DNA of 64,000 nt, from IMG/VR virus record IMGVR_UViG_3300029288_000158, one strand, 5' to 3'. The notes under the pieces are model-generated. The model saw nothing but the letters and a program-made list of their open reading frames with translations, did not search any database and was not told the origin of the DNA. Shown here in pieces: positions 4,810 through 45,589 of the stretch; the stretch's first letter is position 1; the number at the start of each line of letters is the position of its first letter. The position numbers and the translations under genes were made by a program. The stretch is from a virus.

Positions 4810-4815
4810 CTAACA

Positions 4816-6556: not shown

Positions 6557-6607
6557 CCATCGAAACAATCTCCAGCTTGACTTTCATTAAACTTGAAGGT
6601 ATATTAA
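6556..6607 (+). promoter_or_regulatory. conserved promoter cassette copy (-35 6577, -10 TATATT 6600)
   Basis: CGAAACAATCTCCAGCTTGACT. Confidence 0.65.
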
Positions 6608-6611
6608 AACT

Positions 6612-6944
6612 ATGAAACTCTTCTATCTCGGAAAAGAACTTGATTCATCGGCAGAACAAGAATTGAAAACCGATAACGAATTTGGATTTGTTGTAACTAT
6701 CAAGTTCAATCCTGACAACCGTTTTCATCGTGATACAGAAACATCCATTTTCCGAAACGCTACGGAAGTCCATTCTCGTTATACGGAAATGACTATTCGA
6801 CCTGGAAAGAGAATTGCTTTTGAATCCGACATTCACCAAACAGGATTTTGGAAGGATATTGAAGAAATCGAAACCGTAACAATTGAATATGCTTTGGAAA
6901 TGTATTCTTCGGCATATATGGCTTTTGAGGAATTTCCCGAATGA
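6612..6944 (+). CDS. hypothetical protein
   Basis: Track ORF. Confidence 0.55.
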   Translation: MKLFYLGKELDSSAEQELKTDNEFGFVVTIKFNPDNRFHRDTETSIFRNATEVHSRYTEMTIRPGKRIAFESDIHQTGFWKDIEEIETVTIEYALEMYSSAYMAFEEFPE

Positions 6945-8802: not shown

Positions 8803-8850
8803 CCGAAACAATTTCCAGCTTGACTTTGTTTCAAAAATTGGGTAGATTGT
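8802..8850 (+). promoter_or_regulatory. conserved promoter cassette copy (-35 8820, -10 TAGATT 8843)
   Basis: CCGAAACAATTTCCAGCTTGACT. Confidence 0.65.
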
Positions 8851-9452: not shown

Positions 9453-9484
9453 AAGCGGAAATTCAAACTTCCGCTTTTTCTTTT
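9453..9484 (+). terminator. rho-independent terminator
   Basis: agcggaa/ttccgct plus a T-run. Confidence 0.6.
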
Positions 9485-9503: not shown

Positions 9504-9553
9504 GACCGAAGGAAAATCCAGCTTGACTTTGATTATCAACTCGTTTACATTCT
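9504..9553 (+). promoter_or_regulatory. promoter cassette copy 1 of 3 upstream of the 9813 gene (-35 9524, -10 TACATT)
   Basis: CCGAAGGAAAATCCAGCTTGACT. Confidence 0.6.
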
Positions 9554-9608: not shown

Positions 9609-9657
9609 AACCGAAGGAAATCCCAGCTTGACTTAGAGACAGAACGAGCATATATTA
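9609..9657 (+). promoter_or_regulatory. promoter cassette copy 2 of 3 (-35 9628, -10 TATATT 9651)
   Basis: CCGAAGGAAATCCCAGCTTGACT. Confidence 0.65.
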
Positions 9658-9706
9658 AGAGAGTCGGGAAGAGAAGCCAAGGACAAAAAGAAAAACAAAA
9701 AAGTTC

Positions 9707-10607: not shown

Positions 10608-10640
10608 AAGCGGAGGACAAAATTCTCCGCTTTTCTTTTA
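10608..10640 (+). terminator. rho-independent terminator
   Basis: agcggag/ctccgct plus a T-run. Confidence 0.6.
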
Positions 10641-10657: not shown

Positions 10658-10708
10658 TGACCGAAAGAAAATCCAGCTTGACATTCGTTAAATTTGGAGA
10701 TATATTAA
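10658..10708 (+). promoter_or_regulatory. conserved promoter cassette copy (-35 TTGACA 10678, -10 TATATT 10701)
   Basis: CCGAAAGAAAATCCAGCTTGACA. Confidence 0.65.
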
Positions 10709-10727
10709 CCTCAAAGGAGTTACTAAA

Positions 10728-11200: not shown

Positions 11201-11250
11201 TACCGAAGGAATTCCCAGCTTGACTTTCGAAGGGTAATAGTATATATTAG
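11201..11250 (+). promoter_or_regulatory. conserved promoter cassette copy (-35 11220, -10 TATATT 11243)
   Basis: CCGAAGGAATTCCCAGCTTGACT. Confidence 0.65.
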
Positions 11251-11275
11251 TAGTAACCTTAAAGGAGGTTTCAAA

Positions 11276-12711: not shown

Positions 12712-12726
12712 CTTGTCCCTATTGAA

Positions 12727-12776
12727 GACCGAAGGAAAATCCAGCTTGACTTTGGTTTGAACCCCGAGTATATTAC
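12727..12776 (+). promoter_or_regulatory. conserved promoter cassette copy (-35 12746, -10 TATATT 12769)
   Basis: CCGAAGGAAAATCCAGCTTGACT. Confidence 0.65.
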
Positions 12777-12978
12777 ATATAACTGTAACCATGCCGAAGT
12801 TATCAGATTCTAAAAAGGTTAGCAATTCATGCGCCAGTAATTACAAAACAGAAAAATTAAAAACAAAAGTGTGTCAGTTTTTGTGACTAGCATTTTCCAA
12901 AATTGGTAAACTTTGTTTTCTTTTGTCAAATTGTCGTTTCGTTTTTCGTTCCCAATATTTTCATTTTTGGAGATTCGT

Positions 12979-13326
12979 ATGAAGATGTTTCTTTTGTTAT
13001 CTTCTATTTTTATTATCGGTTGTCAGAAAATTGACGAAAACAATATTCGCATGTCGAGAGATTGGGTTTTCGCCATTCCTGATTCTAATAAACAAAAATA
13101 CGCTGATTTTGTTTCCAAGTCGATTAGTGGTTGTAAAGATAATTGTCGTTATCTTTTGTACGATATTCAAAAAATTGGCGGGGAAATGTTTGGAATTAAA
13201 ACGTATTCTTACAATTTGTTCTATTATAAAAATAACGAACGTATTGAAAAAGAACACGTTCTAAAATCTCAAATGAATGAAGATGAATTGAGAGCAGTCA
13301 ATGAAAAATTTCCAGATGATAATTGA
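12979..13326 (+). CDS. lipoprotein
   Basis: MKMFLLLSSIFIIGC lipobox. SD GGAGATTCGTATG. Confidence 0.55.
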   Translation: MKMFLLLSSIFIIGCQKIDENNIRMSRDWVFAIPDSNKQKYADFVSKSISGCKDNCRYLLYDIQKIGGEMFGIKTYSYNLFYYKNNERIEKEHVLKSQMNEDELRAVNEKFPDDN

Positions 13327-13346
13327 GCCGCAATATTGCGATTTTG

Positions 13347-13396
13347 GACCGAAGGAAATCCCAGCTTGACTTTGGGTTCAATAAACAGTAAATTAT
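13347..13396 (+). promoter_or_regulatory. conserved promoter cassette copy (-35 13366, -10 TAAATT)
   Basis: CCGAAGGAAATCCCAGCTTGACT. Confidence 0.6.
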
Positions 13397-13425
13397 CTAA
13401 AGGATTCATAGAAGAAGGTTAGTTT

Positions 13426-13797
13426 ATGTATGGTGAAATTTATTATTACAACTTAGACGGGTCGTTGAAAACCACAACAATTGAATTGTTCAAACGTAAG
13501 CATCACAGATGTTCTCACTTGATTAGAACGGTTCGTGGATTTGAAATAGAAGAACGAATGGTTCCAAAGATGATTGAGAATTTTGTTTTTCTTGAATGTT
13601 GTGAAGAGAAATTCTTTTTCAACAAATACAACGCGATGGTTAATCTTAAAGAGCGATTGTTTAATTACAAACATATTGAGACTCTACGAATAAAGTCAAG
13701 CTCGGCAAATTTGATTTCAAGGTTTAATAATATTACACAGGTTGATGATATTCTTAAAGAAATGGAAGACGTTGGTCCGGGAGGATGGCAGATATGA
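13426..13797 (+). CDS. hypothetical protein
   Basis: Track ORF. Confidence 0.5.
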   Translation: MYGEIYYYNLDGSLKTTTIELFKRKHHRCSHLIRTVRGFEIEERMVPKMIENFVFLECCEEKFFFNKYNAMVNLKERLFNYKHIETLRIKSSSANLISRFNNITQVDDILKEMEDVGPGGWQI

Positions 13798-14129
13798 TAT
13801 ACATATTAGTTATTTCCGTGGTGTTTAACATTTTTTTAATTTCTCGTCTTAGAAAAGCAGTTAGAGAAAGAAATAACTTTTTTGATAGATACTTGGATTC
13901 TTTTTACAAGTGGTGTGTATCTATTAGAGCATCGGAAAAGAACATGGCTGATTACCAGACACTTTGTAAAGCGACACTTCCGATGATTACAGATGATAAT
14001 TTGAAGCAATCGTATGAAGGTTTGGTCGTTTCACTCGAGCGCCAACATTCCGAACTTGAACCTTACAAACAAAAAGCGGAAGAATTTATGACAGAATACG
14101 AAATTCAGAAAATGATGATTGGAGGATAG
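13785..14129 (+). CDS. hypothetical protein with N-terminal TM segment
   Basis: Track ORF. Confidence 0.5.
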   Translation: MADMIYILVISVVFNIFLISRLRKAVRERNNFFDRYLDSFYKWCVSIRASEKNMADYQTLCKATLPMITDDNLKQSYEGLVVSLERQHSELEPYKQKAEEFMTEYEIQKMMIGG

Positions 14130-14399
14130 ATGAGGTTTTTAATTCTTAGTTCTTTGTTTCTTATTGGGTGCTCTGGTGGAAAATACATCAACTTTCAAAC
14201 AAATGTTCCAGCAGAGATTCGTTTTGAAGGACAACGTATTTGTAATTTAGACGAAACTACGACGTGTAGAATTAAATTGAAAAATGATTCGGTGGTTAAT
14301 ACTTATGCTGTTCTAAACAAGAGAAATTATTTTTCAAAATATTTCTCTTTGAGTGGTAATATGTTTTCCAAAGATACAACTATTACAGTGGAGTTTTGA
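14130..14399 (+). CDS. lipoprotein
   Basis: MRFLILSSLFLIGC lipobox. Confidence 0.55.
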   Translation: MRFLILSSLFLIGCSGGKYINFQTNVPAEIRFEGQRICNLDETTTCRIKLKNDSVVNTYAVLNKRNYFSKYFSLSGNMFSKDTTITVEF

Positions 14400-14872
14400 A
14401 AATGAAAACTATTTTTGGATATCAACCGGATGATTATAAAGAAACTTTTCAAAAATATATTGACGCAGCAAAGATAATGAAAACACGAATCATTGTATAT
14501 GGAATCTGGGTTTCGTTTTGGATTTTTCTTTTCGGTTATCAGATTCATAAGAAAGTTACGACCGAACCTATTATGGATTATGTTGTTGTTGACGAAAAGC
14601 GGAATGGTGGCCAGGAACAAACTTCCGGGAAGACGTCGGTTTGGAAAAATGGAACTTGGATAAAACTCCGACACGTTAACGATAACAATAGAATTGAATT
14701 CTTGTTCATTGAAAATCCGTTTGTTGTTGATACGTGGAAGAAGAATGAAGTTTACCTTAAAAACGAATATGATATTCTTAACCAGTGGAATGCGGGAACG
14801 TTTTTCCTAGCCGGTTTGATTTTTGTATTTATTTCGTTCGTTGTTGTAGGAGTAACGGAGAGTTGGGAATGA
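14396..14872 (+). CDS. membrane protein (2 TM)
   Basis: Track ORF with ATGA coupling. Confidence 0.5.
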   Translation: MKMKTIFGYQPDDYKETFQKYIDAAKIMKTRIIVYGIWVSFWIFLFGYQIHKKVTTEPIMDYVVVDEKRNGGQEQTSGKTSVWKNGTWIKLRHVNDNNRIEFLFIENPFVVDTWKKNEVYLKNEYDILNQWNAGTFFLAGLIFVFISFVVVGVTESWE

Positions 14873-15105
14873 CCAAATTCAAACTAACAAAATTTCACGT
14901 TTCGGTTTTCTATGAAGTTGATGTGAAAATCGAATCGTATGAACAAGAAGATTTTGAACGGTTTGTTGCTAATTTGTTCTGTTCAGCACCAATGTTGTTC
15001 ATGACTGATTTTACAACTTTGTTCAAGAATCAGTTCACCAGTAGATTGGTTCATTTTGACCGAATTAAAGAATCGGAAGTAGATTTTCAAATTGAGGTCA
15101 TTTGA
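14869..15105 (+). CDS. hypothetical protein
   Basis: ATG at 14869 overlaps the upstream stop. Confidence 0.45.
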   Translation: MTKFKLTKFHVSVFYEVDVKIESYEQEDFERFVANLFCSAPMLFMTDFTTLFKNQFTSRLVHFDRIKESEVDFQIEVI

Positions 15106-15392
15106 TGAAGACTATTTTTACAATTACCGGAATGCCTGCAAAAGTAAGTTTAGATAACAGAAGTTTTGGTTTTTATTTTGACCTTGACGAAGCTATTGAT
15201 TCAGTTAAACGAAACCGTGGAGATATTCATGAGGATATGTTTGAATATGTAGTCGTTGAAGAATATCCAGAAGGTGTGTTTTCTATTCCTGTAAATGAGT
15301 ATTGGTTTCGTTTTAATCGTTCATTGGAAATATATATCGAATGTGAACGTCCTGAATTTCTAACATATATTAAATGTTTCGGATTTCATTAA
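15102..15392 (+). CDS. hypothetical protein
   Basis: Track ORF. Confidence 0.5.
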   Translation: MMKTIFTITGMPAKVSLDNRSFGFYFDLDEAIDSVKRNRGDIHEDMFEYVVVEEYPEGVFSIPVNEYWFRFNRSLEIYIECERPEFLTYIKCFGFH

Positions 15393-15406
15393 GAAAGAAA
15401 ACAAAA

Positions 15407-15607
15407 ATGAAACAAATCGTCAAAACAATTTTCGGTTCTCATCTTTACGGAACTTCTACTCCTGAATCCGATACAGATTTCAAAGCTGTTCATATGTATT
15501 CTATTCAGGAAATTCTTCTGAAAAAAGACAAAGATAATATTGATTCAAGCACAAATAAGAAAACTAAGACACTAAATACATGTAGATGTTTCGTAGTTAC
15601 AAGATAA
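15407..15607 (+). pseudogene. N-terminal fragment of a Pol-beta-superfamily nucleotidyltransferase (GS..YG....SDxD motif), apparently truncated by the downstream TnpB element
   Basis: MKQIVKTIFGSHLYGTSTPESDTDFKAV is the classic NTase N-terminal motif. The frame then runs into non-homologous sequence and stops inside the tnpB start region. Confidence 0.45.
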
Positions 15608-16857
15608 GATTAGAGACAAACTCAATCCAAACCTCGGCACTTCACCAGAATTGTCAATCGGCTCGTTACGCTTACAATTGGGCTCTGACTAATCAAATCT
15701 CCGCAACAGAACAAGCTAAAGAACTTGCTAAAACAACAAACACCAAACCCATCTACCCTAAAGTTAGTTCTTTTAGCTGGAGTGCTGAGTGGACAAATTT
15801 AAAAAAGAGCGTTCCTTGGTTGAGAGAAGTTTCAAAATGGCCAGCGCAACAAGCATTCCGACATCTTGAACAAGCATACAAAAGATTTTTCAATAAAGGT
15901 GGTTATCCCAAATTCAAGAAATTCTCCGATGCTACAAGTTATACCGAAGGCTGTGTAAGAGTAGGCTACGACTACATTAAGTTACCAAAGATAGGTAAAG
16001 TCAAACTTTCGAGAAAAGGATGGGCTGTTCAAGAAGAAGTAGAACTGTCTTTAGCAACAATTTCGTTTGACGGAGAACACTGGTTTGTTTCTTTTTACTT
16101 GAAAAATAACAACCAGCCTAAACAACTACCAGATTTAACAAATATACTAGAAGATGAAATTCTTGGAGTAGATTTGGGTATAAAGGATTTGGCTATTTGT
16201 TCCGACGGCGAGGTTGTTCCAAACCCAAAAACCTACAAAAAACATCTGAAAAAGTTAAAAAGATTCCAACGAAAATTATCAAAAAAGAAAAAAGGCTCTA
16301 AGAACAGAGAAAAAGCTAAAAGAAAACTAAGAAGAATTCATAACAAAATTCGGAACATTCGCCTAGACAACATCCACAAAATGACATCAAAAATAGTGAA
16401 ATCACAACCTAAAATGATTGTCCTCGAAACCCTAAGACCAAAGAACATGATGAAAAATCACAAATTAGCACAAAGTATAGCCGACGCATCATTCGGAGAA
16501 ATTGTGAGACAGTTCACCTACAAATGTGAATGGAATGGTGTTCACCTTCTTCGTGCGCATCAGTTCTACCCAAGTTCTCAATTTTGTTCTTCATGTGGTC
16601 ACCAAAACAAAAACTTGAAATTAAAAGATAGAGAGTGGATTTGTTCAGAATGCGGAGCAGCCCACGATAGAGATTTCAACGCCGCTAAAAATTTACAATT
16701 TTACGGCTATTGGCTGAACAGCCAGTCTACCGAGGGTTCCTCGGAAAGTTACGCTTGTGGAGGAGATAGGTTGCAGTTCCTTAAAGAACAGTGCTCTCCA
16801 ATAAAACAAGAAATTAAAGATGGAAAAACAAAGAAACCTTGTTTGAATGTCTAAGAT
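15545..16857 (+). mobile_element. IS200/IS605-family TnpB-only (IS1341-like) insertion; ends approximate
   Basis: tnpB sits between two pieces of an apparent NTase-like gene. No tnpA is present. Confidence 0.5.
15586..16854 (+). CDS. tnpB: TnpB (OrfB) RNA-guided nuclease of the IS200/IS605 family
   Basis: RuvC-I ILGVDLGIKDLAICSDG, RuvC-II MIVLETL, zinc finger CSSCGH...CSECG, RuvC-III HDRDFNAAKNL. N-terminal YKIRL...ARYAYNWAL. Confidence 0.9.
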   Translation: MFRSYKIRLETNSIQTSALHQNCQSARYAYNWALTNQISATEQAKELAKTTNTKPIYPKVSSFSWSAEWTNLKKSVPWLREVSKWPAQQAFRHLEQAYKRFFNKGGYPKFKKFSDATSYTEGCVRVGYDYIKLPKIGKVKLSRKGWAVQEEVELSLATISFDGEHWFVSFYLKNNNQPKQLPDLTNILEDEILGVDLGIKDLAICSDGEVVPNPKTYKKHLKKLKRFQRKLSKKKKGSKNREKAKRKLRRIHNKIRNIRLDNIHKMTSKIVKSQPKMIVLETLRPKNMMKNHKLAQSIADASFGEIVRQFTYKCEWNGVHLLRAHQFYPSSQFCSSCGHQNKNLKLKDREWICSECGAAHDRDFNAAKNLQFYGYWLNSQSTEGSSESYACGGDRLQFLKEQCSPIKQEIKDGKTKKPCLNV

Positions 16858-17182
16858 GGAACACCAAATTGAACAGTATGGCGAACGAGTCAAGAAGGCT
16901 GTTGAAGATGGAAAGATTGATTTGAAATCATACTATCACGCTGTTAGAATTGTTTTTGAACTTGAACAAATGCTAACAGAAAGTAGATTGACGTTTCCCA
17001 ATCCAAGAGCTGACTTTCTTTTGAAGATTAGAAACGGAGAATATGATAAAAAGTGGATTGAACATTTTGTTTGTGACGAAATTGAAAGAGTCTTAAAAAT
17101 TCCCAACAATCTTCCTGAACCCAATTTTGAATTTTGGAAAGATTGGATTTTGGATAGGTATGAGTTGAAGTATCAGTGTTAA
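16847..17182 (+). CDS. 111-aa protein; either the C-terminal remainder of the interrupted NTase-like gene or an independent small protein
   Basis: Has its own ATG, which overlaps the tnpB stop. Confidence 0.45.
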   Translation: MSKMEHQIEQYGERVKKAVEDGKIDLKSYYHAVRIVFELEQMLTESRLTFPNPRADFLLKIRNGEYDKKWIEHFVCDEIERVLKIPNNLPEPNFEFWKDWILDRYELKYQC

Positions 17183-17236
17183 ATTCGATTGTAAATACCA
17201 ATGGTTTATTTTCATTCTGCAATAGAAAGGCCGACA

Positions 17237-17731
17237 ATGAACATTCCAAAAACAAACGGAACCGAAATCATTTCCGACAAACCAACTTTGCGAGAGGCTA
17301 TTGCCGAAAATAAATGTTCTTTGTTTGAGGCAGACCTAACGAAAGCCGAACTTCATTTCGCCGACCTTTCTGTTTCAAATTTATACAAAGCAAATCTTGA
17401 AAACACAAACTTAATGGGAGCTAATCTTGAACGGGCTAATCTTCAAAATGCCAATCTGACAAACACGAATCTTCGCCATGTAGATGCCCGTTGGATTAGA
17501 ATTAGTGAAGATGTTGAGATTCTTTTTCGAATGGATTGTTGTATTTGGCCAGTTACAATTTTTCACAAGAAGGTTATGATTGGTTGTAAAGATTTCACGT
17601 TTGAAGAAATTCTAAACATGACAGAAGAGAAAGCGGAATCAATTCATGAAGGCGCTGGAAAAAGATGGAAACGCTGGGGTCGTGGATTGAAGAATAATGT
17701 TCTGGATATTATCGAATCGGGAATTTCGTGA
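17237..17731 (+). CDS. pentapeptide-repeat protein (possible DNA mimic)
   Basis: About 12 tandem A(D/N)LxX pentapeptides (ADLTKAELHFADLSVSNLYKANLENTNLMGANLERANLQNANLTNTNL). SD GAAAGG. Confidence 0.7.
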   Translation: MNIPKTNGTEIISDKPTLREAIAENKCSLFEADLTKAELHFADLSVSNLYKANLENTNLMGANLERANLQNANLTNTNLRHVDARWIRISEDVEILFRMDCCIWPVTIFHKKVMIGCKDFTFEEILNMTEEKAESIHEGAGKRWKRWGRGLKNNVLDIIESGIS

Positions 17732-17737
17732 AGAAAT

Positions 17738-17787
17738 ATCCGAAAGAAAATCCAGCTTGACTTAGGCTTGGTTTGAGAGTATATTAA
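17738..17787 (+). promoter_or_regulatory. conserved promoter cassette copy (-35 17757, -10 TATATT 17780)
   Basis: CCGAAAGAAAATCCAGCTTGACT. Confidence 0.65.
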
Positions 17788-17860
17788 AGGAAAGAGAAAA
17801 CGATTGGCTGGCTGAATTTTTTCACCAGTCTTTCATCCTATTCAAATCAGGAGTTTCAAA

Positions 17861-18145
17861 ATGGTCAGTCTTTGCTATACTTACAAGGTTGAAGTCAATG
17901 GAGTTATCACAGAAACCAAGACAGAGAAAGCATTCACTCAGTTTCCAGACATGGCCGAAGCTAAGAAGTGGGGACGAACAAAGTGGAAGTTTTTGAATTG
18001 GCCGGATGGAAAGTCCCGGACTTCTCACAAGTTTACTCACAATGGAAAGACTTATATTTCTGAAGGATGGGGCGCCAAGAAGAATATGCCGCATTACATT
18101 TCTCACTATGAAATGACTATGACCGAAGAAATTGAAGGAGTTTGA
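17861..18145 (+). CDS. hypothetical protein
   Basis: Track ORF. Confidence 0.55.
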   Translation: MVSLCYTYKVEVNGVITETKTEKAFTQFPDMAEAKKWGRTKWKFLNWPDGKSRTSHKFTHNGKTYISEGWGAKKNMPHYISHYEMTMTEEIEGV

Positions 18146-18146
18146 A

Positions 18147-18476
18147 ATGAAGCGTGGTGGATATGGAATCAAGTCTTTTGAAACTGCTCAGGCTTATCTT
18201 GGAGAAAAGAACATTGCGGAAATTGACAATCTGTGTGTTCTTCTCAAGTTTCAAAACATCATTTCTGTGATTCTTGAAGGTTTTGAAATTGTCAAGTATC
18301 ATGAAGATGGAAAGATTGAACTGACGAATTTCAAAAAGTATGACAGGAAATTCAAGAGGTATCTTTCTGAATTTTCTCCCGTCAAGATTAAGCAAAAAGA
18401 ATTTCAGTGGTATCTTGGGGAACAAATCTTCTTCTCTCATATGATTTTTGAAAACAATGAATGGAGGAAGGTATGA
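18147..18476 (+). CDS. hypothetical protein
   Basis: SD AAGGAG then ATG at 18147. Confidence 0.55.
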   Translation: MKRGGYGIKSFETAQAYLGEKNIAEIDNLCVLLKFQNIISVILEGFEIVKYHEDGKIELTNFKKYDRKFKRYLSEFSPVKIKQKEFQWYLGEQIFFSHMIFENNEWRKV

Positions 18477-18847
18477 AACCAAATTCTTCAGTTCAAGATA
18501 AAGTTGTTGCTGCATTTGAATTTTTTAGCAAGAAGAACGAAAACAAAAATTCAGAAAATAAAAAGAAAGAAAACAAAATGAAAATTCTATTGATTGTTCT
18601 TGCTGGTTTTGTTTTGGTTGGTTGTTCTTCTGAAAAAGAAATAACAACGAAGCAACAAATTATCAAAATTGTCGAAGAGGCATATGCTGAAGGACAAGGA
18701 GACGCGATTGAAGGAGATGTGAGAATCGAAATTGTCAATGATTCTCAAATTGTTTTTACAAAGACTCCTTGGGATGAATGTAGCGACGAAGGAAATTTCA
18801 AATGCGATGCTTCGTTGTTTGACACTGTTACGAATTCTTCGAATTGA
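18473..18847 (+). CDS. lipoprotein (lipobox MKILLIVLAGFVLVGC follows an internal Met at 18578; either start is possible)
   Basis: Track ORF. GGAGG before 18473. Confidence 0.5.
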   Translation: MKPNSSVQDKVVAAFEFFSKKNENKNSENKKKENKMKILLIVLAGFVLVGCSSEKEITTKQQIIKIVEEAYAEGQGDAIEGDVRIEIVNDSQIVFTKTPWDECSDEGNFKCDASLFDTVTNSSN

Positions 18848-18855
18848 GGATAATC

Positions 18856-19311
18856 ATGCTTGAAGCAATAGTCAATCAAATAACAAACGACGTTCCTTTT
18901 GCCGAACTAACAACAAACACAATTATTATTTGCGATGCTCTAGGGTTTGATGTAGCAAAAGATATTTTTGTATCGTTTGAAAAATCCAAAGATGGCCATC
19001 CGGATTATGATTATATTTTTGGAGAATCCGACGATTTTGAAAATATAAAGATTCAAGTTTTCCACGTTACAGAAAAAGAGATACTTGTTCGTGTTGGTGA
19101 ATTTCAAACAATCGCTATCATACATCTCAATGATTTGGAAGGTTTTGAAAAACTAAAACTATTAAACTTCGCATTGCGTGATCGGTGGATTTGTGGTGAT
19201 GGAAAAATTACACCGCTAACTGAATATCGAGGACATGAAAAGTGGGCAGATTGGAATAAGTATCTGATGGCGGTTGTTCAAGGTCGTTTTAATTTTTCGT
19301 TGGAATTTTAA
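18856..19311 (+). CDS. hypothetical protein
   Basis: ATG at 18856. Confidence 0.5.
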   Translation: MLEAIVNQITNDVPFAELTTNTIIICDALGFDVAKDIFVSFEKSKDGHPDYDYIFGESDDFENIKIQVFHVTEKEILVRVGEFQTIAIIHLNDLEGFEKLKLLNFALRDRWICGDGKITPLTEYRGHEKWADWNKYLMAVVQGRFNFSLEF

Positions 19312-19576
19312 AATTGATTCAAAACAAACGGGAGTTGCTTGAATCCGTAATTTCTATCTGTGAACAAATGACAACAGACATAAAACATTCTCAAAAAATA
19401 GCGATGTTGATTCATAGGAAAATAATCTATCCGGTCCCGAACAAATTAGTTCTTCGTTTGTTTCTTTACTTTTGGGTCGGTCAACAATTTTCAAACCTTG
19501 AATTTGAGGAGTATCTAAAATGATTCTTTCGTTTAATGGTTTCCGAATTCGCTCACAACATATTGCCGCATAGTTT

Positions 19577-19759
19577 ACAGAACCAGTTAATAGTTACAAA
19601 TCAAAATATTGGGTTGTTGTTAAATACGGCGGAAATGAAAAGCGATGGGGAATTGAAAATGTGAAAGTTGGCGACGACATTTTAAAACAAATTGATGATT
19701 CGCTTATCGGTGACCTTGACTTTCAAGAAATTCAAATCAAAGAAGTGGAGTTGACATGA
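19577..19759 (+). pseudogene. open frame of about 60 codons with no start codon; likely a decayed or frameshifted gene
   Basis: Protein-like frame ...KYGGNEKRWGIENVKVGDDILKQIDDSLIGDLDFQEIQIKEVELT. Start is lost. It overlaps the next ATG. Confidence 0.25.
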
Positions 19760-20022
19760 TAATTAACATCGATGGAATCAGAATTAACAGCACAGAAATC
19801 TATCGTTACGAGAAGGTTTATTGTGAGAAGAATAATACCAGACCAATCATAAAGATTTCATTTGTCGCAAGGACGCCTAATTCTCCATGTTTGATGAACG
19901 TTCCTTGTAACTATGATGACGATTCTTGTAATAGATTTCTTAGTCTTATGGACGAAGCATTTCAAGAAGAGTTGTCATATTTTTGTATCAACACTCAATT
20001 TTTGGGAATGTCCAAAGAATGA
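19756..20022 (+). CDS. Cys-containing small protein, copy A (88 aa) of a duplicated cassette
   Basis: Paralog of 22936-23139, about 85% nt identity over the first 190 nt with mostly synonymous changes. Confidence 0.6.
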   Translation: MIINIDGIRINSTEIYRYEKVYCEKNNTRPIIKISFVARTPNSPCLMNVPCNYDDDSCNRFLSLMDEAFQEELSYFCINTQFLGMSKE

Positions 20023-20234
20023 ATAATGTTCAAGAAATATTGAAGCTTGTCGGCGCTGGGAATTTAATCTCAACAGAACAAAAGAAAGAAATTGAACCGT
20101 TCTGTCAGCATCTTAGGAACAATGATAAAGATTTCAACATTCTATTTTTTGGAAATACTCACGCGAGAATAACCACTTCTGAAAAATACATTGAAAGTTT
20201 TTATGAATTACAAACTCTCACCAAACATTCTTAA
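20019..20234 (+). CDS. partner small protein, copy A (71 aa) of the duplicated cassette
   Basis: Paralog of 23146-23379 (shared ...KDFNILFFGNTHARITT...). ATGA-coupled. Confidence 0.6.
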   Translation: MNNVQEILKLVGAGNLISTEQKKEIEPFCQHLRNNDKDFNILFFGNTHARITTSEKYIESFYELQTLTKHS

Positions 20235-20448
20235 ATCTCCAACACTTCCTTTTGTGTATGATGGAATTTTGGAAATTGGAAAAGTTTATCAACTACAAAG
20301 GTTGTCAATCAAAATTATTTCAAAAGAAGATTTGTTGGAAAAGTTAGATGATAGAATAAACTTCTCGGTTAATCATACGATTCAAAAATTCCCAAGCATT
20401 GTTCAGAAGATTGCGTTATGTCTACAAACGACGAAACCTATTCAGATT

Positions 20449-20498
20449 GACCGAAGGAAAATCCAGCTTGACAACAGGCTGGATTTTGAGTAGATTGT
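20449..20498 (+). promoter_or_regulatory. conserved promoter cassette copy (-35 TTGACA 20468, -10 TAGATT 20491)
   Basis: CCGAAGGAAAATCCAGCTTGACA. Confidence 0.65.
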
Positions 20499-20513
20499 AT
20501 GACGGAGGAGTTT

Positions 20514-21230
20514 ATGAACGTAATCGCCGTTAAAAATATTATACCAACTCTTATTGATTGGGCGGAAACTCAAACTCCCAATTATGATTGCTGGTGGGAA
20601 TTCTCCGTAGGTTCTGACAATTGGTTTTCTTTTGATTTTTGTAATGTTGTAGATTGGGGAAAAGCTACACAAGAAAAATATATTGGCATTCTGGATTGTG
20701 GTCCTTTTTATGGACATTATGATTCCGATGAAGTTCATGAATATAAGTTTTTATATGTTGCCAACAAAATCGTAGCAATAAGTTTCAAGGTTGGTGATAA
20801 ATCCAAACCAAAATATTATTGGATGACAAACAACAAACGACAAATTCAAACAACGTTGCTTGTCATATATCCGAGTCAAGAAACCATTACAGATGACTGC
20901 GAAATTCTAACAGGGGAAATTTCAGAAACTATTTCGGACAGCTTGTATATGTCGTTTGTTACTATTGATAATGAACTATATCAATTTAACAAAGTGCCGT
21001 ATTGGGGATTTCTTAGAGGAAAAGGAAAAAAGATTCTTGCTACAAACAACGATGGAATTTTTGAAGTTGTTGGTGAGATTGAAAAATACGAAATAAGATT
21101 TCCGGGGATTGTTTATAATGATGCTTGGCAACGTGCTGATTTTTATTTGACAGACGGAAGAGTAATCGTAACTAAGGATATGATTTCCGAAAATGTTAAA
21201 TATTACATGTTTCAAAAAGTGGAGATTTAA
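20514..21230 (+). CDS. hypothetical protein
   Basis: GGAGGAG then ATG at 20514. Confidence 0.55.
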   Translation: MNVIAVKNIIPTLIDWAETQTPNYDCWWEFSVGSDNWFSFDFCNVVDWGKATQEKYIGILDCGPFYGHYDSDEVHEYKFLYVANKIVAISFKVGDKSKPKYYWMTNNKRQIQTTLLVIYPSQETITDDCEILTGEISETISDSLYMSFVTIDNELYQFNKVPYWGFLRGKGKKILATNNDGIFEVVGEIEKYEIRFPGIVYNDAWQRADFYLTDGRVIVTKDMISENVKYYMFQKVEI

Positions 21231-21233
21231 ACA

Positions 21234-21380
21234 ATGATTGAATGTATTGGAAAAGATAACAAGATACATCTTTGCGAACCACATGAAGTAAAAACAAAGT
21301 GTGGAAAAGAAATCAAAAGCAAAAAAGTAAAACCACAAGATTATGATAAAAGATTTTCTTGTGGAGAATGTTCTTACTAA
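21234..21380 (+). CDS. 48-aa zinc-ribbon protein (C..C...C..C)
   Basis: MIECIGKDNKIHLCEPHEVKTKCGK...FSCGECSY. Below the track cutoff. Confidence 0.4.
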   Translation: MIECIGKDNKIHLCEPHEVKTKCGKEIKSKKVKPQDYDKRFSCGECSY

Positions 21381-21392
21381 AAGGAGATTGAA

Positions 21393-21542
21393 ATGTCTAA
21401 GATTTTTCTGATTACGAGTTCTCGCGAAGATTGGCAAGGGTCTACTTGTTTTACCAATTGGAAGGCGTATACAACTCTTGAAGCTGCTGAAAAATGCATC
21501 AAAGATTTTTACGAATCGATTCAGATGTATTCTCGTCAATAA
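21393..21542 (+). CDS. 49-aa hypothetical protein
   Basis: SD AAGGAGATTGAAATG. Confidence 0.4.
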   Translation: MSKIFLITSSREDWQGSTCFTNWKAYTTLEAAEKCIKDFYESIQMYSRQ

Positions 21543-21626
21543 CAACTGAAAGACATATGGAAGAGAAGCGAAAAATCTATTAAACAACCTAAGAAAGATA
21601 CGACTCTTCATCAAACGCGAGAAAAT

Positions 21627-21878
21627 TTGTATAAGGCCAAATCACTCGTAAATGGTGTTGATTTGGATTCACAAATTAAAATTCTTGACGAAAAAATTAA
21701 GATAGTTGATTCTGAGTGGTCAAATACAATTCTCGAATATGAAAGAACGCGGCTTGCTAAGAAAGAAGAATTTGCTCTTACGCTTTCCGAAGAAGATAGA
21801 GCAATTTTTCTAAACGATAATATTTCAAAACCCGTAGAACATGATTACGAAATTGAAGAACTTGAATTGGAGGACTGA
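21627..21878 (+). CDS. acidic hypothetical protein. Contains no internal Met and would need a TTG start; it is in frame with the previous ORF across a single TAA.
   Basis: Track ORF with a TTG start. Confidence 0.35.
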   Translation: MYKAKSLVNGVDLDSQIKILDEKIKIVDSEWSNTILEYERTRLAKKEEFALTLSEEDRAIFLNDNISKPVEHDYEIEELELED

Positions 21879-21881
21879 CAA

Positions 21882-22652
21882 ATGAGTAAAGACAGTCTTG
21901 GCGACAGAATGAAAGATATTGAATCGAGAACGGAATATTTTCTTCCAAGGAGAACGTATACGCTTCTTCGTTTCGACGGCAAAGCCTTCCACACCTTCAC
22001 CAAAAGTTGCGAACGACCATTTGATTTTAATCTTATGGAGTGTATGCAGACCGCTTGTTTGGAAATTTGTAAAGAAGCCCAAGGTGCGGTTATTGGTTAC
22101 ACTCAATCCGACGAAATTAGTTTGGTTCTTACAGATTTCACAGAACCAACAACTGAGGCTTGGTTTGATGGAAACACTCGTAAGATTCAATCAATTGGCG
22201 CTTCAATTGTTACGAACGCTTTTAATAGAGTTTGGATGAACAAATATGCCGAAGACTATTTGAAGAATGGTGGAAGCATTTCGGATTTTCTTAACAACAT
22301 TAAACTGGCCGTATTTGATTGTCGTGTTTGGTCCACGTCCGACCCGTGGGAAGTATTTAACACCTTTCTTTGGCGTCAGAACGATGCTACAAGAAACAGC
22401 ATTCAAATGGTTTCTCAAAGTATGTTTTCTCATAAGGAGCTTCAAAATAAATCATGTCCGGTTCTACAAGAGATGATTTTTCAAAAAGGACAGAACTGGA
22501 ATGATTATCCAAACGAATGTAAACGCGGAACTTTTGTTTACAGGAAAGATGGAAGTTGGTTTGTTGATAAGAACGGCCCAATTCTAACACAAGATAGAAA
22601 ATGGTTTTTTGATAAACTTCCTTTTATTCCACAACCTTCTTTTGAGGATTAA
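21882..22652 (+). CDS. tRNA-His guanylyltransferase (Thg1)-like 3'-5' nucleotidyltransferase
   Basis: Thg1 signatures LLRFDGKAFHTFTK and GYTQSDEISLVL, and length. Confidence 0.8.
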   Translation: MSKDSLGDRMKDIESRTEYFLPRRTYTLLRFDGKAFHTFTKSCERPFDFNLMECMQTACLEICKEAQGAVIGYTQSDEISLVLTDFTEPTTEAWFDGNTRKIQSIGASIVTNAFNRVWMNKYAEDYLKNGGSISDFLNNIKLAVFDCRVWSTSDPWEVFNTFLWRQNDATRNSIQMVSQSMFSHKELQNKSCPVLQEMIFQKGQNWNDYPNECKRGTFVYRKDGSWFVDKNGPILTQDRKWFFDKLPFIPQPSFED

Positions 22653-22654
22653 AA

Positions 22655-22939
22655 ATGTTTGTAGACGAACTTAGAAAAAATGTAAGAGATAGTAATATCA
22701 ATAAGTTTGATAAAATTCAAAAAGAACTTATTGATAGCTTACATGCCGATGCGATATTTAATTCAAAACAAGCAAAAACTAAATTCGTAGCAATATATAA
22801 AGTTGATTTGTCGGGTCTTGAAATTCAACGGCTTATAAAGAATGTAATTACTTATTTTGAAAACGAAAATCTCGCGATTGAAATTGAACACATGATAATT
22901 AAAAGCCTGAGAATTTCTTTGGATTGGAGTGAAAAATGA
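22655..22939 (+). CDS. hypothetical protein
   Basis: Track ORF, coupled to neighbours. Confidence 0.5.
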   Translation: MFVDELRKNVRDSNINKFDKIQKELIDSLHADAIFNSKQAKTKFVAIYKVDLSGLEIQRLIKNVITYFENENLAIEIEHMIIKSLRISLDWSEK

Positions 22940-23139
22940 TTATTAACATTGATGGAGTAAGAATCAACAGCACAGAAATCTACAGATATGAAAAGGTTTA
23001 TTGTGAAAAGAACAATACTAGACCTATCGTAAAGATTTCTTTTGTAGCAAGAACGCCAAATTCTCCGTGTTTGATGAACGTTCCTTGTAATTATGATGAA
23101 ACTTCTGTTGATAAGTTTCTTCGGATTTTGGACGAGTAA
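22936..23139 (+). CDS. Cys-containing small protein, copy B (67 aa)
   Basis: Paralog of 19756-20022. Confidence 0.6.
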   Translation: MIINIDGVRINSTEIYRYEKVYCEKNNTRPIVKISFVARTPNSPCLMNVPCNYDETSVDKFLRILDE

Positions 23140-23145
23140 ATTTTA

Positions 23146-23379
23146 TTGATATTTATACGGAACATCTTGGAAATAAAAATTATTGAAGAAATTCTAAAGT
23201 TAATTCAATCAGGTAATGTGATATCTTCAGACCAAAAGAAAGAAATCGAATCATTTTGTAAGTATCTACGAGAGAATGACAAAGATTTCAATATTTTGTT
23301 CTTTGGAAATACTCACGCAAGAATTACAACTGACACAAAACACTTTGAAGAATTTAGGAAAATATACCATGAAACTTGA
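23146..23379 (+). CDS. partner small protein, copy B (77 aa)
   Basis: Paralog of 20019-20234. Its stop overlaps the radical-SAM start. Confidence 0.6.
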   Translation: MIFIRNILEIKIIEEILKLIQSGNVISSDQKKEIESFCKYLRENDKDFNILFFGNTHARITTDTKHFEEFRKIYHET

Positions 23380-24328
23380 AGATAACGGATTCTATACTTT
23401 GTCGGACGCTCGTTGTGTTTCGGCAACTCATGAAACAAATTTGATGCGTTGTGAATTGATTCTCACGGATGCTTGTAACTTTAGTTGTAAGTATTGTCGA
23501 GGTCAAAGAAAAGATTTGAAAAAGAATCTTACTTATGAAGAAGCATTGAACATTGTCAACCTTTGGATTTCACAAGGTTTGACGAATGTTCGTTTCTCTG
23601 GTGGCGAACCTACTCTTTGGAAGGGTTTGGAAAATCTTGTTCGTCACTGTAAGAAAAACAATGTTCAACATATTGCGGTTTCTTCCAATGGTTCGGCATC
23701 TATTGAACTTTACGATAGACTGATTGAAGCGGGGGTTAATGATTTTTCCATTTCACTCGATGCTTGTTGTGCGTCTTTCGGTGATTTGATGGCTGGAAAA
23801 GCAGGAGTTTGGGATAAGGTTGTTAATTGTATCTCCCATGTTTCCAAAAAAGTTTACACAACTGTCGGAATTGTTGTGACTGAAGAAACTGTTCACACAT
23901 TGAAAGATGTCGTTATGTTTGCTGCCGACCTTGGGGTTGCCGACATTCGTATCATTTCTGCCGCACAGTTCAATCAAATGTTGGACGTTGCGAACACCAT
24001 TCCTCAATCTGTTTATGACAAGTATCCGATTTTGAAATATCGAATAAACAACACTTTCAACAACATCAATGTTCGTGGTATTCAAGAAACCGATTCTCAC
24101 AAGTGTTGGATTGCTCTTGATGACATGGTTGTCGCTGGAGACTATCATTTTCCTTGTGTCATCTACATGAGAGAACAAGGAAACCCGATTGGAAAAGTCG
24201 GTCCAAACATGCGGGAAGAACGACGAGACTGGGTGAAGAATCACGACACTCATTCCGACCCGATTTGTAAAAAGAATTGTTTGGATTGTATAATTCTTTA
24301 CAACAAGAAGTTCGAGGAGAAGATGTAG
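23369..24328 (+). CDS. radical SAM enzyme with C-terminal Cys-rich auxiliary-cluster region (SPASM/twitch- or MoaA-like clade)
   Basis: CNFSCKYC (Cx3Cx2C), FSGGEPTLW, SSNGS, NDFSISLDA. C-terminal C...C...CKKNCLDC. Confidence 0.75.
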   Translation: MKLEDNGFYTLSDARCVSATHETNLMRCELILTDACNFSCKYCRGQRKDLKKNLTYEEALNIVNLWISQGLTNVRFSGGEPTLWKGLENLVRHCKKNNVQHIAVSSNGSASIELYDRLIEAGVNDFSISLDACCASFGDLMAGKAGVWDKVVNCISHVSKKVYTTVGIVVTEETVHTLKDVVMFAADLGVADIRIISAAQFNQMLDVANTIPQSVYDKYPILKYRINNTFNNINVRGIQETDSHKCWIALDDMVVAGDYHFPCVIYMREQGNPIGKVGPNMREERRDWVKNHDTHSDPICKKNCLDCIILYNKKFEEKM

Positions 24329-25170
24329 ATTCTGTTGACAATTGTGATGTGATTTTTACAAACGACGTTTATCCTGAAAATGTTTTGTCTTGTGGAAAAA
24401 GAAAAATTAAACGAATGGATGGCGTTTTTTGGCAAGAAGATTTCAAAGAACGAAATGAAAAATATAATCTTGCTGCGGAACAATCAGACCACGTTATTTT
24501 CATTTCCGAATATTCTAAGAAATCATTTGAAACACTTTACAAATCACAAATTGAAAATTGCTCGGTAATAACTCATTGGGTGGAAAAGAAGTTTGATTAT
24601 TTTTACGATTGTCAATTTAACAATACATTCTTTTCAATGGCAACGGATTGGAATAGAAAAGAAAAAAGATTGAGTGAAATAGTTAAGTTTGTTGAATTGA
24701 CGGGCTGCAAAATAAATCTTGTTGGGAAATGTGAATATGAAGTTCCGGAAAATATTACTAAGTTTGGATATTTGGAACCAGATTCAATAGAGTTTCTTTC
24801 GGTGATAAAACAATCTTCAGCATTTTTAAATCTAACGTGTAAAGATGCTGCTACAAAAACGGTTTGTCAAGCAATCAACTATGGTCTTCCGGTTTTGTTT
24901 TCAAATTCCGGGGGTGTTTCAGAACTTGTTTTGGATTGTGGGGTTGGAATAAAAGAAGAAGAAGAAATTGATTTTCTTAAAAATGTTCCAGAATTAAAAC
25001 AACAGAATATAATTTTTGGATTTGAACAATTTGTAGAACAATATGCCAAACTCAAAGATAACATTGATAACAGAATGAAAGACGATTTGTTGATGATAGC
25101 TGTTGGAAAATATTTTGAAATAATTAAAGGAGAAATAACAAATGAAAATGAAGAATGTAAACATCATTAG
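24277..25170 (+). CDS. glycosyltransferase-like protein (GT-B C-terminal domain-like). Start is uncertain (TTG at 24277 or ATG at 24415).
   Basis: ...NLVGKCEYEV...GLPVLFSNSGGVSELV resembles the GT4/GT1 C-terminal Rossmann domain. Confidence 0.45.
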   Translation: MFGLYNSLQQEVRGEDVDSVDNCDVIFTNDVYPENVLSCGKRKIKRMDGVFWQEDFKERNEKYNLAAEQSDHVIFISEYSKKSFETLYKSQIENCSVITHWVEKKFDYFYDCQFNNTFFSMATDWNRKEKRLSEIVKFVELTGCKINLVGKCEYEVPENITKFGYLEPDSIEFLSVIKQSSAFLNLTCKDAATKTVCQAINYGLPVLFSNSGGVSELVLDCGVGIKEEEEIDFLKNVPELKQQNIIFGFEQFVEQYAKLKDNIDNRMKDDLLMIAVGKYFEIIKGEITNENEECKHH

Positions 25171-25582
25171 CCTTCAAGATTTTGATGAGCTTGTCAAAAA
25201 AACATATGGAAAGATTTATAGTTTCCAGCAACAAGATGGATGTAAAGATAGACAAACTGTTTATTTTTCTGTTCCGTATGAAGACGCTGAAGATTTTAAA
25301 AATGATAAGATTCCCGAAATCATCAATGGCGATAAGATGGGAGTTTCTTTTAAATCGTGGCTTGAAAAGAATCCAGAATCGCCTCTGAATCCAAATCCAG
25401 ACGAATTGAAAGAGTGTATATATTATTGGGGTGAAGATGTTAACGAGTGGTGTTCGAGTAAATCCCACATTGAATTGTTTTGGGATAGAAACTTTTATCC
25501 GCACGTTTCTATGATTGTCAACGATTTACACGCCAAAGGATTGCTTCCGGCTGGAGAATACGGAATTGAAATTGATTGGTGA
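25142..25582 (+). CDS. hypothetical protein
   Basis: SD AAAGGAGAAATAACAAATG. Confidence 0.55.
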   Translation: MKMKNVNIISLQDFDELVKKTYGKIYSFQQQDGCKDRQTVYFSVPYEDAEDFKNDKIPEIINGDKMGVSFKSWLEKNPESPLNPNPDELKECIYYWGEDVNEWCSSKSHIELFWDRNFYPHVSMIVNDLHAKGLLPAGEYGIEIDW

Positions 25583-25620
25583 TTTTTAAAAAGGAGAAAT
25601 AACAAATTATTAATCCTGAA

Positions 25621-25824
25621 ATGAAAAAGACAATTCTTACGGCGCTTTCGAATCATTTGGGAGATGATTTGTATAAGGCTAAGAATGCTTTCAAAAACTA
25701 TACTCCGAAGATGATGAATGAACAATACGGTCATTCTGGTCAGACACCAAATAAAATTTTAGAATCTTATCAGAAACACTACGACAAAGTAACTGAAGCA
25801 ATTCGTTTTGTAGAAAGGTTGTGA
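25621..25824 (+). CDS. hypothetical protein
   Basis: Track ORF. Confidence 0.5.
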   Translation: MKKTILTALSNHLGDDLYKAKNAFKNYTPKMMNEQYGHSGQTPNKILESYQKHYDKVTEAIRFVERL

Positions 25825-25827
25825 AAA

Positions 25828-26073
25828 ATGAAGAAGACAATGTTTTGTTTGTTTCTGATTATTACAAGCTGCACTTCTTACGACATTAAGACTTCGGGTA
25901 ACGGTGTAATTATTTCTGAAAGTAAATGGGGTGGTGGTTATTGTGTGTTTCAGATTTATACGCTAACAGACAATAACAGAATCATAAACGGTAAGATTTA
26001 CTCATATATCCTGGATTCTTGTGGCAAATTTAACATAGGCGACACGGTTGGTTTGCGATTGGAGAAACGATAA
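25828..26073 (+). CDS. lipoprotein
   Basis: MKKTMFCLFLIITSC lipobox. Confidence 0.55.
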   Translation: MKKTMFCLFLIITSCTSYDIKTSGNGVIISESKWGGGYCVFQIYTLTDNNRIINGKIYSYILDSCGKFNIGDTVGLRLEKR

Positions 26074-26501: not shown

Positions 26502-26548
26502 TGTCAACGAATGATGAAACCCATTCTGGTTAATTTGTATTATTCATA

Positions 26549-26575
26549 AGGTCGGTTTTATCGGCCTTTTCTTTG
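26549..26575 (+). terminator. weak hairpin terminator
   Basis: ggtcgg/cggcc stem plus a T-run, before the promoter cassette. Confidence 0.35.
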
Positions 26576-26595
26576 CCAGTTCTGACCTATTGGAA

Positions 26596-45555: not shown

Positions 45556-45589
45556 AAAACACTCTCCTGGAAAGAATATTAAGTTTCAA

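Follow-up and report, generated by a model that had tools for sequence, protein, structure and literature searches.

A probable TnpB/omega-RNA cassette without a transposase gene inside a disrupted nucleotidyltransferase gene of a T4-like jumbo phage

A gene for an RNA-guided nuclease of the TnpB type was identified in a 64,000-nucleotide (nt) stretch of viral DNA (IMG/VR record IMGVR_UViG_3300029288_000158), referred to below as the window, between the two remnants of a nucleotidyltransferase (NTase) gene. It seems to us probable, though well short of certain, that the locus holds a non-autonomous TnpB/omega-RNA cassette (OMEGA) of the ISDra2/IS605 lineage which lacks tnpA, lies inside a dead NTase gene and would spread by homing. 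A preliminary description, made from the letters alone, had noted three open reading frames (ORFs) here (15407-15607, 15586-16854 and 16847-17182) and had taken them for a TnpB-only element of the IS200/IS605 type, apparently inserted, perhaps recently, into an NTase-like gene. The three ORFs stood, and matches on both sides of tnpB to an uninterrupted NTase homolog (protein P0122, contig L160) placed such an element inside such a gene. The insertion was a replacement with the loss of ~482 nt, not a clean split.

The central ORF encodes a complete TnpB, as had been read from its RuvC and zinc-finger motifs. Pfam searches returned OrfB_IS605 (5e-27), Cas12f1-like_TNB (5e-21) and HTH_OrfB_IS605 (2e-7), the families concerned being PF12323, PF01385 and PF07282. 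Alignment to the ISDra2 TnpB structures 8BF8, 8EXA and 8H1J gave an E value of 3e-61. The protein is full length, with an N-terminal HTH/WED-REC region, a split RuvC domain carrying the D-E-D triad, and a zinc ribbon. The catalytic residues D196 (16171-16173), E281 (16426-16428) and D363 (16672-16674) are retained, as is the zinc finger C334/C337/C353/C356 (16585-16653), both CxxC pairs of which align to the zinc residues. The closest TnpB proteins, P0003 (72% identical, contig L006) and P0004 (71% identical, contig L007), are encoded on other phage contigs at different loci. Compared with these two genes, tnpB showed a proportion of nonsynonymous differences (pN) of 0.17 and of synonymous differences (pS) of 0.78, the synonymous sites being saturated, and it is intact and under purifying selection.

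The flanking fragments were assigned through homology searches. The N-terminal fragment (66 aa) begins with MKQIVKTIFGSHLYGTSTPESDTDFK and extends into the element up to its stop at 15607. Its residues 1-50 were 50% identical (E 7e-16) to residues 1-50 of a 336-aa NTase of T4-like phages (Tequatrovirus, PhiZZ6), which is annotated in a Klebsiella phage as "RNA repair pathway DNA polymerase beta family protein". Codons 1-43 were 84% identical to P0122, the closest uninterrupted homolog (313 aa; start MKQIVKTIFGSHLYGTSTPESDSDFK). Residues 5-108 of the C-terminal fragment, whose ATG overlaps the tnpB stop TAA (16852-16854), correspond to residues 208-311 of P0122 (77% identity, E 3e-51) and also align with residues 226-323 of the 336-aa Tequatrovirus protein (E 4e-11). 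A HMMER search with this fragment returned 764 significant homologs; among the best 150, the full-length proteins were mostly ~300-350 aa long and aligned with the fragment near their C-terminus (~205-320). At the DNA level, L160 139-268 matched window 15405-15534 (82% nt identity) and L160 771-1071 matched window 16868-17168 (77%), while no window counterpart of L160 ~291-772 was found. The absent ~482 nt encode residues ~51-210 and include half of the NTase domain; the 1.3-kb cassette stands in their place. Together the fragments cover ~155 of the 313 P0122 residues, and they do not make up a complete RlaP/PF10127 domain. Alignment of both fragments to NTases of the PF10127 type had been proposed as a check: the C-terminal fragment aligned with P0122 (itself above the RlaP threshold, with 31.3 bits over residues 7-135), and the N-terminal fragment alone gave 18.8 bits, under the cut-off of 23. 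Because residues ~51-210 are missing, the NTase is here a remnant and not a functional member of its family; the host gene is dead, and the 111-aa C-terminal ORF is probably a remnant.

Neither fragment contains stops or frameshifts. The ratio of nonsynonymous to synonymous substitution rates (dN/dS) against L160 was 0.09 for the N-terminal and 0.05 for the C-terminal fragment, with synonymous sites near saturation. Most of the divergence therefore accrued while the gene was functional, which suggests that the disruption is recent relative to that divergence. No closer intact NTase allele and no empty site of the window element were found in searches of viral contigs with protein patterns and exact DNA. 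The sole return of a word search with the C-terminal fragment was a chimeric-looking 846-nt ENA contig (L005), positions 615-828 of which match window 16942-17155 (76% nt identity). Its protein, P0001, has a GAF-domain N-terminal part joined to an NTase C-terminal part; it reflects either an assembly chimera or a further allele of the NTase gene that has been rearranged. Window 15407-15486 (~80 nt) showed 79-82% DNA identity to NTase genes in 302 records of T4-like Escherichia, Klebsiella and Citrobacter phages; no DNA matches to phage records were found elsewhere in 14000-19000. Candidate microhomologies between the junctions and L160 (TAAAGACGATG and TAACTGACATG) were discarded, the local alignments being at chance level.

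A structured omega-RNA scaffold, supported by covariation, overlaps the 3' end of tnpB and reaches the right end of the element, in agreement with the position expected beforehand. The stretch matching window 16727-16815 is nearly invariant in DNA among the window, L006 and L007 genes, with a third-codon-position identity of 0.80-0.97 compared with 0.48-0.64 in other parts of tnpB. The scaffold alignment (A6, 93 columns) comprises nine members of a clade: these three genes and six others at ~50% identity, three of which (P0011 on L078, P0034 on L161 and P0067 on L162) are paralogs in this same phage. The fold has two helix domains, with 22 base pairs in four helices. In the nine-sequence alignment 98.5% of the cells were paired, against 31-50% with partners slid; compensatory changes were observed at eight pairs, and the covariation score was reached by none of 500 shuffles. 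Covariance model R1 gave one match in the window, at 16725-16817 (110 bits, E 4e-24), and 35 matches on 98 loci, every one at the 3' end of tnpB and on its strand. In this wider set compensatory changes occurred at 18 of the 22 pairs, a figure biased toward structure since the alignment was fitted to the model. An Rfam scan of 14500-18500 at E<=10 returned no credible family, whether omega-RNA, group I intron or other.

The ends of the element were located by comparison with a sister element for which an occupied and an empty site are both at hand. L006 belongs to a relative of the window phage; no counterpart of the L006 or L007 flanks was found in the window. A search with the clamp-loader protein of L006 found this protein at 99% identity on L170, a contig of 40.7 kb which carries no tnpB and whose flanks are 97.7% identical to those of L006 (L006 394-4964 corresponds to L170 609-5179, and L006 6273-6535 to L170 5173-5435). 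Because of this empty site the ends of the sister element are fixed. The occupied and empty sites are L006 4958-6279 and L170 5173-5179. The insert is 1308 nt long with base-precise junctions, and the 7-nt sequence TTCAAAT, of which L170 has a single copy, stands at both of its ends in L006. CAAAT closes the left flank and is followed by a left end of 36 nt before the ATG, AATGTGCTTTATCCTCATCAACA-TAAATAC-TAACAT; the right end consists of a hairpin, GAACAT and (TTCAAAT). Two phage genes share a stop/start overlap, ATGA, at this site; the insertion sits precisely within it and re-creates it, in that the gene upstream gains a TAA stop and tnpB ends on the duplicated TTC AAA TGA, overlapping the downstream ATG. 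With the ends transferred from this pair, the window element would span ~15557-16869, or ~1.31 kb.

A hairpin of 40-45 nt occurs at the same place in all nine clade members, its sequence variable and its position and size conserved. On folding, the mean z was -2.5 (window, -2.0), with p<=0.05 in six of the nine. The hairpin sequences differ among the four paralogous cassettes of this phage. GAACA[C/T] follows the hairpin in the window, L006, L007, L163 and L162. In L006 the right end, GAACAT+TTCAAAT, falls exactly on the L170 empty-site junction, and in the window the homology to the L160 NTase restarts at 16868, which agrees with this placement. Canonical relatives with 41% identity (the multi-copy gut elements L087-L098) possess the same core and hairpin followed by AGTGTCAA, 8 nt to the end, after which their flanks diverge. 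A right end at 16815 with a guide at 16816-16833 was rejected, since the distance from core to stop is tightly constrained, every member has the hairpin, and the canonical relatives continue by the hairpin plus 8 nt. A 16-nt repeat (16817-16832 and 16853-16868) was within the noise of AT-rich DNA.

With the right end so placed, and by analogy with ISDra2, a guide of ~16 nt would be read from the flank 3' of the right end. This sequence is NTase coding sequence (~P0122 residues 211-216), consistent with the earlier suggestion that the guide derives from the downstream NTase fragment. At the same site the L160 allele reads CATGAT followed by TGAACAGTTTGGAGAG, the first 8 nt being identical and 16 of 20 matching. 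The coordinates of the features are collected in Table 1.

Table 1. Features of the tnpB locus and promoter-like repeats of the window
Feature	Position	Strand	Basis or remark
NTase N-terminal remnant, codons 1-50, GSxLYG...SDxD motif	15407..15556	+	3' limit uncertain by ~20 nt (15535-15556)
End of left flank, CACAAAT, candidate transposon-adjacent motif (TAM; core ARAT/CAAAT)	15550..15556	+	Proposed by analogy with the sister element
Left end of element, ~29 nt, no Shine-Dalgarno	15557..15585	+	L006/L170 comparison
tnpB, 422 aa, ISDra2-like RNA-guided nuclease	15586..16854	+	Pfam, PDB alignment
Omega-RNA scaffold, conserved core	16725..16817	+	Covariance model and covariation; within last ~45 tnpB codons
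Terminal hairpin of right end and omega RNA	16813..16857	+	Folding; tnpB stop in 3' arm
C-terminal fragment ORF, 111 aa, no Shine-Dalgarno	16847..17182	+	~7 element-encoded codons, then ~105 NTase C-terminal residues in frame
Right-end terminal motif, GAACA (16859-16863) and CCAAAT (16864-16869)	16859..16869	+	Element end ~16863-16869
Imperfect copy of left-flank end at right end, CACCAAAT	16862-16869	+	7/8 nt
Predicted omega-RNA guide, TGAACAGTATGGCGAA	16870..16885	+	Right-end boundary and ISDra2 mechanism; first 16 nt of right flank
Promoter-like repeat	1390-1446, 2354-2410, 6560-6616, 9611-9667, 10661-10717, 11203-11259, 12729-12785, 13349-13405, 17740-17796, 20451-20507, 26597-26653, 57746-57802	+	Repeat search
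Promoter-like repeat, further copies	2825-2854, 4867-4896, 8803-8832, 9506-9535, 50184-50213	+	Repeat search

The left end is short across the clade (~29-45 nt). Hairpins had been expected at both ends, as in IS200/IS605 elements; that of the right end was found, and that of the left end is absent, DNA folds of the left end and 5' coding region being at chance in four elements (z -0.5 to +0.6). The expected TTAC-like target was likewise not seen: the left flanks of three elements end in CAAAT, CAAAT and AGAT, the window flank in CAAAT. A TAAATAC box is present at 15573-15579, 6 nt ahead of the tnpB ATG, and each of the nine clade members has TAAATA[C/A/G] at a distance of 4-10 nt from the ATG, on its 5' side; other clades lack it. 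The window holds 15 TAAATAC sites against 10.8 expected, so there is no enrichment; one of them (17192-17198) lies 2 nt before the ATG (17201) of a pentapeptide-repeat gene just 3' of the NTase remnant. TAAATAC was rejected as the TAM, since the L006/L170 empty site puts it inside the element. Its interpretation as a T4-type late promoter (TATAAATA) was unsupported, the motif being absent upstream of the structural genes of L078 and TAAATAC showing no enrichment. Within the window neither the element nor either of its ends was found a second time.

The element has no space for tnpA, with 29 nt between the flank and the tnpB ATG. A tblastn search with four Y1 TnpA proteins, taken from loci of distant relatives, revealed no Y1 TnpA in the 64-kb window or the clade loci (the rest of the 305-kb genome was not searched); the positive control gave 1e-15 to 1e-88. 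The best relative among GTDB representatives (185,579 species genomes) was 41% identical, and all relatives with at least 46% identity came from metagenome contigs, many of them 100-305 kb long. TnpB in phage genomes is already known (PMC12607003); 421 phage records had a TnpB match, all with less than 60% identity. Three further tnpB paralogs, ~50% identical, are located in the same phage (L078 4001-5251, L161 3001-4302 and L162 3001-4299), each with its own omega-RNA core (93-110 bits with R1), a differing terminal hairpin and a TAAATA[C/A] box. One lies between baseplate and neck genes, and that on L162 precedes the start of the window by ~2.7 kb. With the window copy, the cassettes of this kind in the phage number at least four.

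The mechanism of ISDra2 TnpB is established: the guide comes from the flank, and the omega RNA is processed from the nuclease's own transcript (PMC8612924, PMC10278001). By analogy, the window tnpB mRNA could arise from a phage operon transcript (promoter ~13366, no internal terminator) or from the TAAATAC box. TnpB would then trim the 3' part of this transcript to an omega RNA with the last ~16 nt (16870-16885) consisting of NTase sequence. The complex would cut DNA in which a TAM (~CAAAT/ARAT) stands directly 5' of the guide sequence, as would be the case for alleles without the cassette in co-infecting relatives; the resident copy itself would be immune, the right end having replaced the TAM. 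Repair of the cut allele by recombination from the occupied genome would copy the cassette in, which amounts to homing. The 482-nt loss would most likely reflect a deletion between short direct repeats of the CAAAT type, after or with the insertion, and microhomology joins may also carry the cassette to new loci.

Several observations weigh against this interpretation. Homing reaches homologous sites only and leaves the many different loci of the clade unexplained. No co-conversion gradient in mismatch density was found around the L006/L170 site. The closest intact allele, L160, has ATGAT and 4/20 mismatches to the guide, and may not be a substrate. The TAM was deduced from three flanks only, and for the window element the left boundary can be placed only to within ~20 nt, 15535-15556 being of low complexity and diverged. 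The 482-nt deletion may lie on either side of the element, the junction alignments to L160 being at chance. Finally, the two assemblies that contain the locus are 100% identical and may have the same reads as their source.

The main rival to self-driven spread is passive spread by microhomology joining, which we regard as unlikely although it is the best of the alternatives. The cassette would then be cargo (a "moron") that moves by microhomology-mediated illegitimate recombination and is kept for some benefit to the phage, such as cutting the DNA of competitor phages or of the host. The direct repeats that flank the insert (7 nt in L006, 11 nt in L007 and an imperfect 7/8 nt in the window) speak for it, as such repeats are not made by canonical IS200/IS605 transposition, and so does the preservation of operon stop/start coupling by the insertions. 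The L007 repeat, ACGAAGATTGA (4945-4955 and 6293-6303; 2 of 300 shuffles reach the same), is longer than a shared 4-5-nt TAM predicts, which suggests duplication or microhomology joining; taken together, the 7-nt and 11-nt repeats reflect either a right-end tip identical to the TAM, or duplication or microhomology. A second gene-sized indel beside the L006 tnpB site (L006 6536-6854 versus L170 5432-5435) holds a 106-aa ORF of unknown function and is bounded by microhomology of the same type (GAAAAATG), and joins of this type are therefore common in these phages. Against passive carriage, the guide position is taken up in each case by the DNA directly adjoining the right end, a trait of selfish IS605 elements, and the right flank here is a dead gene fragment, an unlikely target for a useful nuclease. 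The scaffold-adjacent 18-mer 16816-16833, which is the rejected guide position and not the final 16870-16885, had no other match in the window. Among the nine elements only L007 has significant flanking direct repeats, and in the six clade members other than the window, L006 and L007 none are evident.

Still less probable, it appears, is a non-autonomous IS200/IS605 element of the ordinary sort that is moved in trans by a Y1 TnpA encoded elsewhere, in the host or phage, with the NTase segment deleted later. The ISDra2-like TnpB and the right-end hairpin fit such an element, and the relatives at 41% identity are textbook examples, with ~185-nt left ends bearing hairpins, TTAT(C)/TTAC as the target and TCAA at the close of the right end; Y1 TnpA genes adjoin more distant relatives. 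The clade resembles the TnpB-only IS200/IS605 derivatives (IS1341-like) and the IS608-like L087-L098 in having a single tnpB with a core matched by R1 (27-45 bits). In contrast to L087-L098, its left end measures just 29-45 nt and has no hairpin, their target is missing, and the right-end tip in the window repeats the flank, unlike pairs of the TTAC/TCAA type. Moreover, the right-end hairpins of the four paralogs in one phage differ, so that a single TnpA could not recognise them all, and the TnpA search reported above was negative within its scope.

Regulation of the downstream gene by a domesticated TnpB had also been proposed, and we consider it very improbable. As in TldR systems (PMC10705468), a TnpB-derived protein stands next to a guide RNA without a transposase, and here tnpB runs in the same direction as the downstream ORF and is translationally coupled to it, the guide lying within that ORF. 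TldRs, however, have lost the RuvC catalytic residues and target promoters, whereas the window TnpB retains its triad and zinc finger and behaves as a mobile insertion, with presence/absence polymorphism in sister phages. In addition, the guide-matching DNA has no TAM in cis, and the downstream ORF is the remnant of a disrupted gene. A clean recent insertion that split a complete NTase gene, or three independent genes with chance similarity, can practically be set aside: both fragments are open and well conserved, but they make up only about half of the protein, L160 ~291-772 has no window counterpart, and E 3e-51 is far above chance. Equally hard to credit is an assembly chimera of unrelated reads at the junctions; the sequence comes from a metagenome contig and the related short contig L005 looks chimeric, but the same 14.1-kb sequence occurs in a second assembly (Logan SRR8542065) and the junction architecture is that of L006 and L007. 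IStrons (PMC10690162) likewise have tnpB in a protein-coding gene and an omega RNA at its 3' end; an IStron was ruled out here, as no group I intron was detected in the Rfam scan, 29 nt precede tnpB, and splicing could not restore a host gene from which 482 nt are lost.

The TnpB/omega-RNA cassette with spread by homing, which we favour, can be set beside two known designs. With ISDra2 (8BF8, 8EXA, 8H1J; PMC8612924) it shares ~38% TnpB identity over residues 3-371, the D-E-D triad and zinc finger, a scaffold that runs from within the 3' end of tnpB to the right end, and a guide from the adjacent flank. It differs in lacking tnpA and a left-end hairpin and in its candidate TAM (CAAAT/ARAT, compared with TTGAT in ISDra2); the clade further differs in its left end of ~30-45 nt with the TAAATAC box, its occurrence in phage genomes, and a tnpB ORF that spans the whole scaffold. 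The free-standing homing endonuclease genes of T4-like phages (Seg, Mob; PMC13565253) are similar in that a nuclease gene lies inside a phage gene or between two, sharing their orientation and operon, shows presence/absence polymorphism in close relatives, occurs several times per genome and would be expected to cut the unoccupied allele on co-infection. Unlike Seg and Mob, recognition would be RNA-guided rather than protein-based, and no GIY-YIG or HNH domain is present. Homing was not found to have been demonstrated for a phage TnpB in the literature searched; for phages the concept is theoretical only (PMC13565253), and TnpA-independent spread of TnpB has been described on plasmids (PMC10690162). 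A broader proposal, which is tentative and in our estimate less likely to be right than wrong, is that the clade with at least 50% identity to the window TnpB is a phage-restricted, TnpA-independent form of OMEGA system. It would spread by RNA-guided homing among co-infecting jumbo phages, insert at stop/start overlaps in a manner that preserves operon expression, and arrive at further loci through microhomology joins, for which its own staggered cuts are possible sites. The minimal cassette would then consist of the TAAATAC box, tnpB, omega RNA and right-end hairpin, an RNA-guided counterpart of the T4 Seg and Mob genes.

The window comes from a metagenome contig of 305,169 nt (ENA ERZ27247363, k141_806084; window 5586 equals contig 94976). 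Over 14,131 nt (window 12724-26854) it is matched at 100% identity by a Logan contig from SRR8542065, which represents a second assembly of the same junctions with no independent variation. Genes for tail sheath, tail tube, T4-type baseplate and neck proteins were identified elsewhere on the contig, and ClpB-like, Hsp90-like, RNA ligase, Thg1-like, radical-SAM and GIY-YIG genes in the window; the source is a large (~305-kb) T4-like jumbo phage. The + strand holds nearly all genes. It also has at least 18 copies of a promoter-like repeat with the strongly conserved sequence CCGAAGGAAAATCCAGCTTGACTTT-N~17-TATATTA, which reads as an upstream A/T-G box, a -35 element (TTGACT) and a -10 element; several copies are preceded by a terminator made of a GC hairpin and T-run (e.g. 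1337-1362, 4814-4840, 9453-9478 and 10608-10634). The repeat is probably a class of phage early or middle promoter. The copies nearest to tnpB bracket the region, one on each side (13349-13405 and 17740-17796), and tnpB therefore lies inside a phage operon; a scan of the region between them for promoters and terminators gave chance-level signals only. GC skew falls from ~+0.2 in the flanks to zero or negative values across tnpB (15450-16650), and GC content rises up to 0.36-0.43; the composition of the cassette is distinct from that of the phage backbone.

Other features of the genome were also noted. An RNA ligase (PF09414; 38543-39760), a Thg1-like enzyme (PF04446; 21882-22652) and the RlaP-type NTase (15407-17182) occur in one window and look like a phage RNA-repair gene set of which the NTase would be the inactivated member. 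Candidate homing endonucleases of classical type in the same genome are a GIY-YIG protein of 356 aa (5486-6556) and a faint LAGLIDADG-like protein (L162 4964-5797). Diverged duplications of small genes (72-92% nt identity) were identified at 19756-20195 and 22936-23349 and at 43645-44353 and 44355-45060, and a 67-nt motif stands at the 3' ends of four genes (39843-39909, 43569-43635, 45143-45209 and 45507-45573); both suggest paralogous gene families in the window.

Cas12 descends from TnpB, which also serves as a compact genome editor. To our knowledge, the only part that TnpB has been shown to play in nature is the retention of transposons, together with TnpA. Phage elements with tnpB and an omega RNA are as such a known kind; the clade described here varies the IS200/IS605 design and makes a good candidate for homing guided by RNA. 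New are the exact anatomy of the element, the finding that the host gene lacks its middle, and the recognition of a phage-borne clade marked by a reduced left end without a hairpin, a conserved TAAATAC box, termini that repeat the flank and several paralogs per genome. For the window alone the gain is modest: a corrected annotation (dead NTase, element ends, scaffold and guide) and at least four cassettes in the phage. If the homing interpretation is true, these phages would offer a natural test case for "non-restorative" RNA-guided homing, an idea that has been only theoretical for phages (PMC13565253), and the clade would be a source of new small TnpB/omega-RNA pairs with an A/T-rich TAM.

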